DNA from: Candidatus Heimdallarchaeota archaeon
GTDB lineage: Archaea; Asgardarchaeota; Heimdallarchaeia; JABLTI01
Direction: 5' to 3'
NCBI GenBank assembly: GCA_019058275.1
Contig: JAHLVW010000091.1
Location: 1 to 15,102 of the forward strand
Length of the DNA stretch: 15,102 nt
Shown: piece after piece, positions 1,202 to 1,545 of the stretch
Layout of the letters: each line of letters begins with the position of its first letter
Numbering within the stretch: the first letter of the stretch is position 1
Notes under the pieces: generated by a model
Databases searched by the model: none
What the model was told of the DNA's origin: nothing
Seen by the model: only the letters and a program-made list of their open reading frames with translations
Made by a program: the position numbers and the translations under genes

Positions 1202-1545
1202 TGCGAATAGTAGAATCAATGGAGTTCGGGAAAAAATCACTAAGAAATCATTTACTGTTAATGGTTAATTTGGCAATAAATAGCTACTATAACAAATGGT
1301 TGGTTGTGAAAAATAGAAAAATAAGATTAGAAAAGAGAATTTCAGCATCGGTAAATGAAAGTGAAGAACACACAAGTGCCAAAGATGCTGAGATGCATCA
1401 TTCTTTGTCAATGAGTAAAACAAACATTCCTAGAAAACCCATTCAATTTGATGATAGGAAATGTACCATAAACAAGGAAAAGCTGACTAAAAAGAAGTCA
1501 GTAGAATATTACCCCTATTCCTCTTCTTCGCCTGCTAGCAGGTGA
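1123..1545 (+). pseudogene. C-terminal continuation of the Cas5-HD gene in the -1 frame, carrying the permuted His helix SLRNHLLLMVNLA
   Basis: The frame of ORF 1201..1545 is open from 1123 and reads NPDSPYKLYSYIYHSKELMRIVESMEFGKKSLRNHLLLMVNLAIN. One extra A near 1146-1148 would fuse it to the HD ORF (EE-NPDSPY). The part after ~1335 is less protein-like and overlaps the hairpin tract. Confidence 0.7.
1339..1545 (+). ncRNA. Candidate structured RNA (five consecutive stems) at the 3' end of the Cas5-HD gene
   Basis: Stem 1: ATTTCAGCATC 1339-1349 / GATGCTGAGAT 1384-1394. Stem 2: ACATTCCTA 1424-1432 / TAGGAAATGT 1455-1464. Stem 3: CTGACT 1483-1488 / AGTCAG 1496-1501. Stem 4: GAATA 1504-1508 / TATTC 1516-1520. 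Stem 5: TCGCCTGCTAGCAGGTGA 1528-1545. Expression is not shown by the sequence. Confidence 0.4.

Follow-up and report, generated by a model that had tools for sequence, protein, structure and literature searches.

A conserved structured element at the 3' end of array-less Cas7/RAMP-HD cassettes in Candidatus Heimdallarchaeota, a candidate RNA partner of the cassette proteins

ARAMP systems are array-less, type III-derived CRISPR derivatives in Asgard archaea (PMC8730458, PMC12669027). ARAMP and HRAMP systems keep RNA-binding Cas7 and Cas5 proteins without an array, and their mechanism has been called enigmatic (PMC8730458). Which RNA could such proteins work with? We addressed this question at one locus of this type in a Candidatus Heimdallarchaeota archaeon. 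The window, meaning the whole stretch of DNA analysed, is a complete contig of 15.1 kb (15,102 nt; JAHLVW010000091.1, here C86) from an assembly of 4.1 Mb and 32% GC (GCA_019058275.1, here G000). It begins on the + strand with a cut Cas7-like gene and a gene for a RAMP protein fused to an HD domain (RAMP-HD). At the 3' end of the latter, the original prediction had flagged a hairpin-dense tract (1339-1545) as the RNA partner of an array-less Cas7/"Cas5-HD" complex. Our analysis firmly establishes that this tract contains a conserved, structured, sense-strand module that is terminal to ARAMP cassettes. We refer to it as the ARAMP tail element; in the window it occupies 1337-1514 of the + strand (model R1), about 178 nt of predicted structured RNA with the domains P1, P2 and P3 and a 3' end resembling a Shine-Dalgarno (SD) site.

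Fold, covariation and strand of the tail

We folded the tract 1339-1545 and compared it with 200 dinucleotide shuffles. The + strand had a minimum free energy of -52.1 kcal/mol, against -35.2 +/- 4.0 kcal/mol for the shuffles (z -4.2), and none of the shuffles folded as well. The - strand (reverse complement) gave z -0.3. Among 207-nt segments over positions 1-3200 the tract was the sole outlier, with non-overlapping segments ranging from z -1.8 to +1.6. In the folding comparison that the original prediction had proposed, the tract thus stands out from shuffles on the + strand only.

Five consecutive stems had been described in the tract, of which the first three proved to be conserved family helices, while stems 4 and 5 lie in the host flank and are not conserved. 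Stem 1, read directly from the sequence, pairs ATTTCAGCATC (1339-1349) with GATGCTGAGAT (1384-1394) over 11 bp with one G-U, and it contains the predicted sub-stems GGTA 1350-1353/TGCC 1377-1380 and GTG 1361-1363/CAC 1369-1371; together they make up P1 (1339-1394, + strand). P2 (1401-1479, + strand) is a long irregular hairpin, and P3 (1482-1502, + strand) is the hairpin GCUGAC/GUCAGU, variable in sequence and with an A-rich loop. The element closes with the degenerate 3' end motif TAGAATATTACCC (1502-1514, + strand), for which the family consensus after P3 is tAGGTGATAaaac. Stem 4 (1506-1522) spans the element end. Stem 5 (CCTGCTAGCAGG, 1530-1541) sits in a 37-aa open reading frame (ORF) on the - strand, where the ortholog reads CCTGCGAAAAGG and has no palindrome.

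The gene pair has about seven paralogous loci in this genome. The paralogs were compared in an alignment that begins at the conserved HLLLMVNL motif. Nucleotide conservation runs past stop codons that differ in place and frame between copies, and indels between tail copies are not multiples of three. Between species of the genus, the tail core was 72-84% identical in DNA. A family alignment of 32 distinct copies was then built with MAFFT, and later a model-fitted alignment of 45 copies. RNAalifold on the MAFFT alignment gave P1 and one small helix, and the remaining helices were taken from averaged pair probabilities. In the family, P1 has a closing helix UCUCA/UGAGA with inner helices within, and its pairs covary: pair 16-64 is CG in 30 cases and UA in 8, pair 25-56 is GC in 19 and AU in 17, and pair 12-71 is UA in 33 and CG in 5. 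P2 is built from the helices CCAUG/CAUaGG, GCU/GGC, CUC/GAG and GAGn/nCUC. P3 has 5-6 bp and an A-rich loop; its stem sequence differs from copy to copy, and 6/6 pairs covary.

The two alignments gave similar results. Canonical pairs filled 87.5% of the pair cells in the 32-copy alignment and 91.3% in the 45-copy alignment, compared with 32-42% and 32-43%, respectively, when the 3' partners were slid. Changes on both sides were found in 24/40 and 31/40 pairs, the latter answering the covariation check in homologous loci that had been suggested. The covariation score was 0.276 (slid, at most 0.081) for 32 copies and 0.365 (slid, at most 0.091) for 45 copies, and in each alignment 0/500 shuffles reached the observed covariation. 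The 45-copy alignment leans towards structure because it was fitted to the model. Family pairs held 148 G-U/U-G cells against 50 A-C/C-A cells, and this excess indicates that the sense strand is the folded strand. Chance pairing is excluded for stems 1-3.

A mutually exclusive pairing, GATGC 1384-1388 with GCATC 1395-1399, had also been pointed out. It is present on the + strand (1384-1399), within the most conserved block, GATGCTGAGATGCAT, and can form in 96% of cells (45 copies), but it showed 0 compensatory changes in the family and did no better than shuffles. As a conserved switch it is neither supported nor contradicted, with no covariation either way. A small conserved ORF (MSNADL...) inside P2 was considered and rejected, since 1-nt indels break its frame between copies. 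A search of Rfam with seven copies and their flanks (E <= 1) returned no family match; the hits were two neighbouring tRNAs and one sub-threshold chance match.

We next consider the window copy itself. Model R1 matched 1337-1514 with 115.5 bits (E 6.5e-23), with the window in the training set. Independent support came from an nhmmer match to a paralog (E 2.8e-4), which is weak because the window copy is the most diverged in sequence. Nevertheless, 36/40 family pairs are canonical in it, and where its P2 departs from consensus, the departures are compensated (UUCUUUGU/ACAAGGAA, AUG/CAU, CAUUCCUA/UAGGAAAUG and AAA/UUU). In another species (G004), a solo tail occupies the orthologous site; it directly abuts the stop codon of the 37-aa ORF and has no cassette genes upstream. 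Comparison of the 40 pairs between the window and G004 showed 25 identical and 15 different pairs; seven of the latter had changed on one side and were still paired, five were double compensatory changes, and three had a non-canonical cell. The P3 stem of G004 is wholly different (AUCGU/ACGAU) and stands in the same place. These compensatory changes indicate that the fold has survived both speciation and the disappearance of the neighbouring genes. We also considered P3, or another internal segment, as a flank-matched guide and rejected it, since the orthologous copies share the flank and not the P3 sequence.

The internal loop of P2 at 1427-1460 resembles a kink-turn, with UUCC-UA-GA-AAA facing UUU-GAU-GA-UA-GGAA and tandem G-A coming after a 3-nt bulge. 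In the family, this position lies between CUC/GAG and GAGn/nCUC, and nAnGA is retained on the strand with the bulge. A true kink-turn would point to binding by L7Ae. The motif is only a lead, as the G on the opposite strand varies in the family.

Cassette proteins and their decay in the window

The Cas7-like gene (a Csm3-like RAMP; 3-443, + strand) is represented by its last 146 codons, the contig start cutting off the 5' part. This fragment gave weak matches only (RAMPs, E 0.006; Csf2, E 0.003). Its full-length paralogs scored 28-32 bits against Pfam RAMPs, for which the gathering score is 22.1, and their best PADLOC match was Csm3. The RAMP-HD ORF starts at ATG 437 and overlaps the Cas7 stop codon in the shared letters ATGGTGA.

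According to the paralog alignment, the RAMP-HD gene is split in the window into a 5' part in frame A (437-1201, + strand, 254 codons) and a 3' part in frame B (1153-1545, + strand; ORF 1201-1545, 114 codons). In the paralogs, one frame of 308-390 codons spans both window ORFs, and the proteins read ...EIEE.Q.SAYKLYNYIYHS... in that single frame. The window changes frame between ...EIEEIQ and DSPYKLYSYIYHS, near 1150-1156 (+ strand). Among DNA contigs from public sediment runs, closely related strains have one extra base behind 1152/1153, and a contig identical to the window lacks it. As related strains carry this base, the window gene has a 1-nt deletion. The tract does overlap the 3' end of the "Cas5-HD" gene, as originally noted, but the gene reaches it only through this frame break.

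The window RAMP-HD ORFs had no match in Pfam or NCBIfam, and a profile search against the PDB returned a chance match only. The Pfam HD profile matched RAMP-HD weakly and below threshold (E 0.02-0.13). We therefore turned to an AlphaFold2 model of the intact paralog on C88 (pLDDT 78.5). Residues 1-124 adopted a RAMP fold (Foldseek probability up to 1.0), with VIA Z 6.5-8.1 to Csm4-sized, Cmr and Csf subunits and Z 5.9-6.7 to Cas6 chains; this N-terminal domain resembles subunits of type III, IV and VII complexes. For residues 139-299, the best matches of the helical part were to the N-terminal HD domain of Csm1/Cas10 (6ifk_A, Z 8.3; 6mua_A, Z 8.0). The columns H152, D153, H160, H182, H183 and D200 are invariant in RAMP-HD. 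By these matches, the cassette proteins are RNA-binding RAMPs of type III ancestry together with a Cas10-type HD domain. Residues 301-342, which the element encodes, are predicted to be disordered in the paralog (pLDDT <50), and from about 1339 on the window gene encodes only this disordered tail.

Protein identity of RAMP-HD between species was 41-59%. The nearest relatives are in metagenome-assembled genomes (MAGs) labelled Candidatus Heimdallarchaeota, and distant ones, at 35-43% identity, are in Candidatus Borrarchaeum. In one RAMP-HD paralog (C11:68183-68995; L007/L008), about 35 residues that include a zinc-ribbon-like CxxC...CxxC are inserted where the RAMP part meets the HD part, and the Cas7 gene beside it contains an in-frame TGA.

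We then examined the state of the local genes. Contig C82 (1-3500, - strand) is about 91% identical to window 1-894, and its differences exactly match those of the variant strain. C82 is an allelic variant of the window's locus that entered the co-assembly from a second strain, the dominant one in another sediment run; the MAG thus mixes strains at this locus. Both C82 and the window contig break inside the repeated cassette. On C82, the Cas7 gene of this locus lacks its first ~30 codons, and the divergent AbrB/MazE-type gene that is present before other copies (PF04014, 45.7 bits) is absent. With the HD gene frameshifted and Cas7 5'-truncated in the allelic contig, the protein-coding part of the window cassette is decaying. 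Intact cassettes are present elsewhere in the genome, on C88 (2017-3902) and C25. The view of the window copy as a dead relic was accepted for the protein genes and rejected for the RNA, whose fold has been kept by compensatory changes.

Distribution of the tail and comparison with known systems

The 45 copies all have one orientation. Upstream of about 22 there is a near-full RAMP-HD gene and upstream of about 13 only a 3' remnant of that gene; 7 are solo. This genome has 7-9 tail copies and one relative has up to 13. The family was found in 10/11 genomes of one family of the class and is nearly confined there; outside it, tails were detected behind RAMP-HD genes in two other families (G059, f6, 76 bits; G021, f3, 44 bits). 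Three tail copies lie within 30 kb on C11.

In Candidatus Borrarchaeum, a GC-richer conserved element of ~170 nt occupies the same position, after the RAMP-HD stop codon, and ends in GACGAGAAAGGTGATA. It was seen in L140, L142-L145 and L141 (Candidatus Borrarchaeum and a Promethearchaeota MAG), where it lies ~60-230 nt downstream of the LLMVNL motif and contains a long GUUCUUCGC/GCGGAGAAC hairpin. From its sequence and position it looks like a deep homolog of the tail. The stop codons of the paralogs fall at various places and in various frames inside the element. These differing stops, the non-triplet indels, the disordered peptide and the position after the stop codon in Borrarchaeum are the grounds on which the element is judged non-coding.

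The right end of the element is exact. In the window, the boundary lies at 1514-1516. In the strain variant, the cassette is ~10% diverged and 1394-1516 cannot be aligned, and only one of the 984 nt that begin at 1517 differs, placing the strain divergence boundary at 1516/1517. Elsewhere the tail adjoins the ATG (1-7 nt) of housekeeping-like genes (RFC small subunit-like, ABCE1-like, S19e-like and others), the end of a tRNA gene on either strand, or a convergent stop codon, as in the window. Two of the tails on C11 (40886-41200 and 69156-69470) adjoin intron-containing tRNA genes, one a tRNA-Asp on the - strand and the other a + strand tRNA identified through Rfam only.

The original prediction had called the complex array-less, which is true at the locus; there is no CRISPR array on the 15.1-kb contig. 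The assembly, in contrast, has CRISPR arrays and Cas1 on other contigs, so "array-less" holds for the ARAMP loci only. Arrays were found at C26:16253-16956, C68:4005-4449 and C4:2-2400, with 30-nt (GTTTGAATCGTACTATTGTAGTATTGAAAT) and 37-nt repeats that both end in ATTGAAAT; these contigs are assigned through a MAG with 6.8% contamination, and their origin in the same organism is an assumption. Two full Cas1 genes are present (C26:14898-15734, beside an array, and C76:1534-2412), and Cas1 also occurs on C48. Neither the window nor the neighbourhoods of the paralogous cassettes examined contained Cas1. There were no direct repeats in or around the element, and each cassette has one tail copy. 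No repeat end of the ATTGAAAT type was noticed in the window copy or the family consensus, where no motif search was run.

ARAMP is reportedly first described in Makarova et al. 2020, CRISPR J 3:156. No ARAMP RNA was found in PMC8730458, in PMC12669027 or in literature searches, which did not cover that original paper. The window-type cassette resembles ARAMP in combining a Cas7 homolog, a RAMP and a nuclease without an adjacent array in an Asgard host, and in being closest to type III. It differs in its nuclease, which here is a Cas10-type HD fused to the RAMP, compared with the usual HNH and PD-(D/E)xK nucleases (PMC12669027), and in having no Cas1 in the cassette, compared with the distinct Cas1 included in most ARAMPs (PMC8730458, PMC12669027). 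The conserved tail RNA is a new part relative to the ARAMP descriptions.

We compared the tail with three further systems. The omega RNA (reRNA) of TnpB overlaps the 3' end of its ORF, and the original prediction had drawn this analogy. The positional analogy was borne out, as the element overlaps the ORF 3' end and runs exactly to the cassette boundary. Like the omega RNA/reRNA of IscB/TnpB (IS200/IS605), the tail is structured, overlaps the 3' end of the effector ORF and reaches the exact end of the element; both are multicopy, RNA-bearing ends persist without intact genes, and adjoining host DNA could be read as a guide. Unlike there, where the effector is a single RuvC protein, the effectors here are RAMPs of class 1 together with HD; neither TnpA nor IS ends were seen here, and the junctions are flush with gene boundaries instead of a short target motif. 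Because the effectors are RAMP plus HD, OMEGA is a functional analogy at most, not membership.

The CRISPR RNA (crRNA) complexes of type III (Csm/Cmr), IV and VII share with the cassette the partner folds, namely a Csm3-like Cas7, a putative Csm4/Cas5-like RAMP and a Cas10 HD. The ARAMP cassette differs in lacking a repeat-spacer array, a repeat-derived 8-nt tag and a Cas6 gene, and the tail is ~178 nt and almost entirely paired, in contrast to a crRNA, which guides as an extended single strand. CRISPR-associated transposons (CASTs), with homing guides by conserved genes, are similar in that CRISPR-derived effectors act without classical interference and that many copies lie by tRNA or housekeeping genes. 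They differ in that Tn7-type genes, an array and an atypical repeat are missing here, where mobility is only inferred.

Candidate roles of the tail and neighbouring genes

A full ARAMP cassette comprises a Csm3-like Cas7 and a Cas10-type HD nuclease to which a small, putatively Cas5-like RAMP is fused, with an AbrB/MazE-type gene that points away from them. The tail, predicted to be made from the + strand, forms its 3' terminal module. From the sequence we infer that the tail is transcribed, with or behind the HD gene, and bound by the cassette proteins; the ORF would merely run into it as a disordered extension. In the reading that we prefer, and whose chances we consider evenly balanced, the tail would be a dedicated RNA component of the Cas7/RAMP-HD complex, a scaffold that possibly bears a guide, acting in trans at this decayed locus. 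With its own protein genes broken, this locus could sustain such a partnership only in trans, and the window tail RNA may be served by the intact cassettes on C88 and C25. Of the original prediction, a conserved, covarying sense element tied to Cas7/RAMP-HD cassettes is supported, and the RNA-partner claim is plausible; two of its five stems fall outside the element, and the local genes are broken.

Several points weigh against the preferred reading. Of the sequencing runs listed for this DNA, none is an RNA run. Class 1 crRNAs are held unstructured along Cas7, while the tail is almost fully paired. The tail has no repeat-derived handle or evident spacer. With canonical arrays and Cas1 in the assembly, ordinary crRNAs could be at the disposal of the ARAMP proteins. 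Copies that are solo or 5'-truncated reach scores as high as those behind intact genes, which a function unrelated to the proteins would explain equally well. The RAMP and HD fold matches are middling in strength (Z about 8).

If the RNA-partner reading is true, no class 1-type effector before this one would have been found with an RNA that is structured and not repeat-derived, and the complex would possibly be a new programmable ribonucleoprotein from the closest archaeal relatives of eukaryotes. A covarying RNA at the cassette end gives a concrete candidate for how array-less ARAMP works. An extension of this reading, by analogy with omega RNA, takes the tail as its class 1 counterpart, with a transcript that would run into the adjoining host sequence and use it as a guide. 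On this view, Cas7/RAMP-HD could target either the empty site or the junction formed once the cassette is in place, so that the cassette homes to the site or is kept there. Both the lack of an array and the way the junctions fit flush against conserved genes would follow from this reading, which we consider rather unlikely.

A different possibility, also tentative and on balance improbable, is that the tail acts in cis, as the right end of a cassette that moves or is exchanged, and that its fold, as RNA or + strand single-stranded DNA, would be read by an integrase or recombinase in the manner of integron attC or IS200/IS605 ends. Binding by Cas7/RAMP-HD would be unneeded, and the two readings are compatible. 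The multicopy state of the cassette (7-9 in the genome, up to 13 in the relative), the exact right junction, flush with unrelated ATGs, tRNA ends and convergent stop codons, and the strain variant, ~10% diverged or unalignable to 1516 with a nearly identical flank from 1517, all speak for it, as does the suggestion that Asgard Cas1 homologs, of which most ARAMPs include a distinct one, may mark new mobile elements (PMC8730458, PMC12669027). Against this, the cassette contains no recombinase or transposase gene, and no matching left end or target duplication turned up, although no search was aimed at these. The stepwise decay at orthologous sites points to old, vertically inherited insertions, and a used-up end needs no retention of the tail. 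The 3:1 excess of G-U over A-C favours RNA. If the tail is not a partner of the proteins, the flush junctions with essential genes would represent an unusual way for a cassette to lodge and persist in a genome.

The gene-side junctions also suggest an expression adaptor, in which the tail would supply a ribosome-binding site and a processing or stabilising structure to the neighbouring host gene and would be kept after cassette decay for that reason. The RFC small subunit-like, ABCE1-like, S19e-like and other genes have the consensus 3' end AGGTGAT 5-8 nt ahead of their ATG, and 5'-truncated and solo tails persist before such genes. Every copy with a + strand ORF after it retains the GG of the SD-like motif, which is degraded in several of the others, including the window, and this pattern indicates that a probable ribosome-binding role of the last 12 nt is separable from the function of P1-P3. 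The window copy and its ortholog, in contrast, adjoin a convergent stop codon and have lost the SD-like motif, with P1-P3 kept by compensatory changes; other copies adjoin tRNA genes on either strand, and 170 nt of covarying structure is more than a ribosome-binding site requires. We regard the adaptor as a quite unlikely account of the whole element.

It is also very doubtful that the ARAMP proteins use crRNAs from the canonical arrays and that the tail is a 3' untranslated region, a terminator or an mRNA-stabilising structure. The arrays with 30-nt and 37-nt repeats, the two Cas1 genes in the assembly and the location of the element at the 3' end of the operon would fit. However, tails outlive operons with their structure intact, tail DNA is 72-84% identical between species compared with 41-59% for the proteins, and most copies have no oligo-T tract after them, many running straight into a host ATG. 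Finally, the idea that the stems are chance pairings in ordinary coding sequence, for which the open frame through the tract in the window and the non-conserved stems 4 and 5 could be cited, is negligible in view of the z-score, the strand asymmetry, the covariation, the conservation across frames and the disordered peptide.

The remaining features of the contig flank the cassette. The conserved 37-aa hydrophobic ORF of the host (1515-1628, - strand; ...LAGEEEE*) has its stop codon (CTA 1515-1517 on the + strand) next to the element end, and in another species (L102) it is kept, with synonymous changes. The ORF probably encodes a genuine small membrane protein and is located downstream of a large surface-protein gene. 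Three large secreted or surface proteins are encoded on the - strand of the window: a 1190-aa protein with bacterial TSP3 repeats and an Fn3 domain (1814-5386), a 677-aa LVIVD-repeat beta-propeller (9578-11611), and a TSP3-repeat protein resembling CglD/MtsD (13757-15100), whose gene contains a 69-nt tandem repeat (13947-14191). These three genes are unrelated to the tail.

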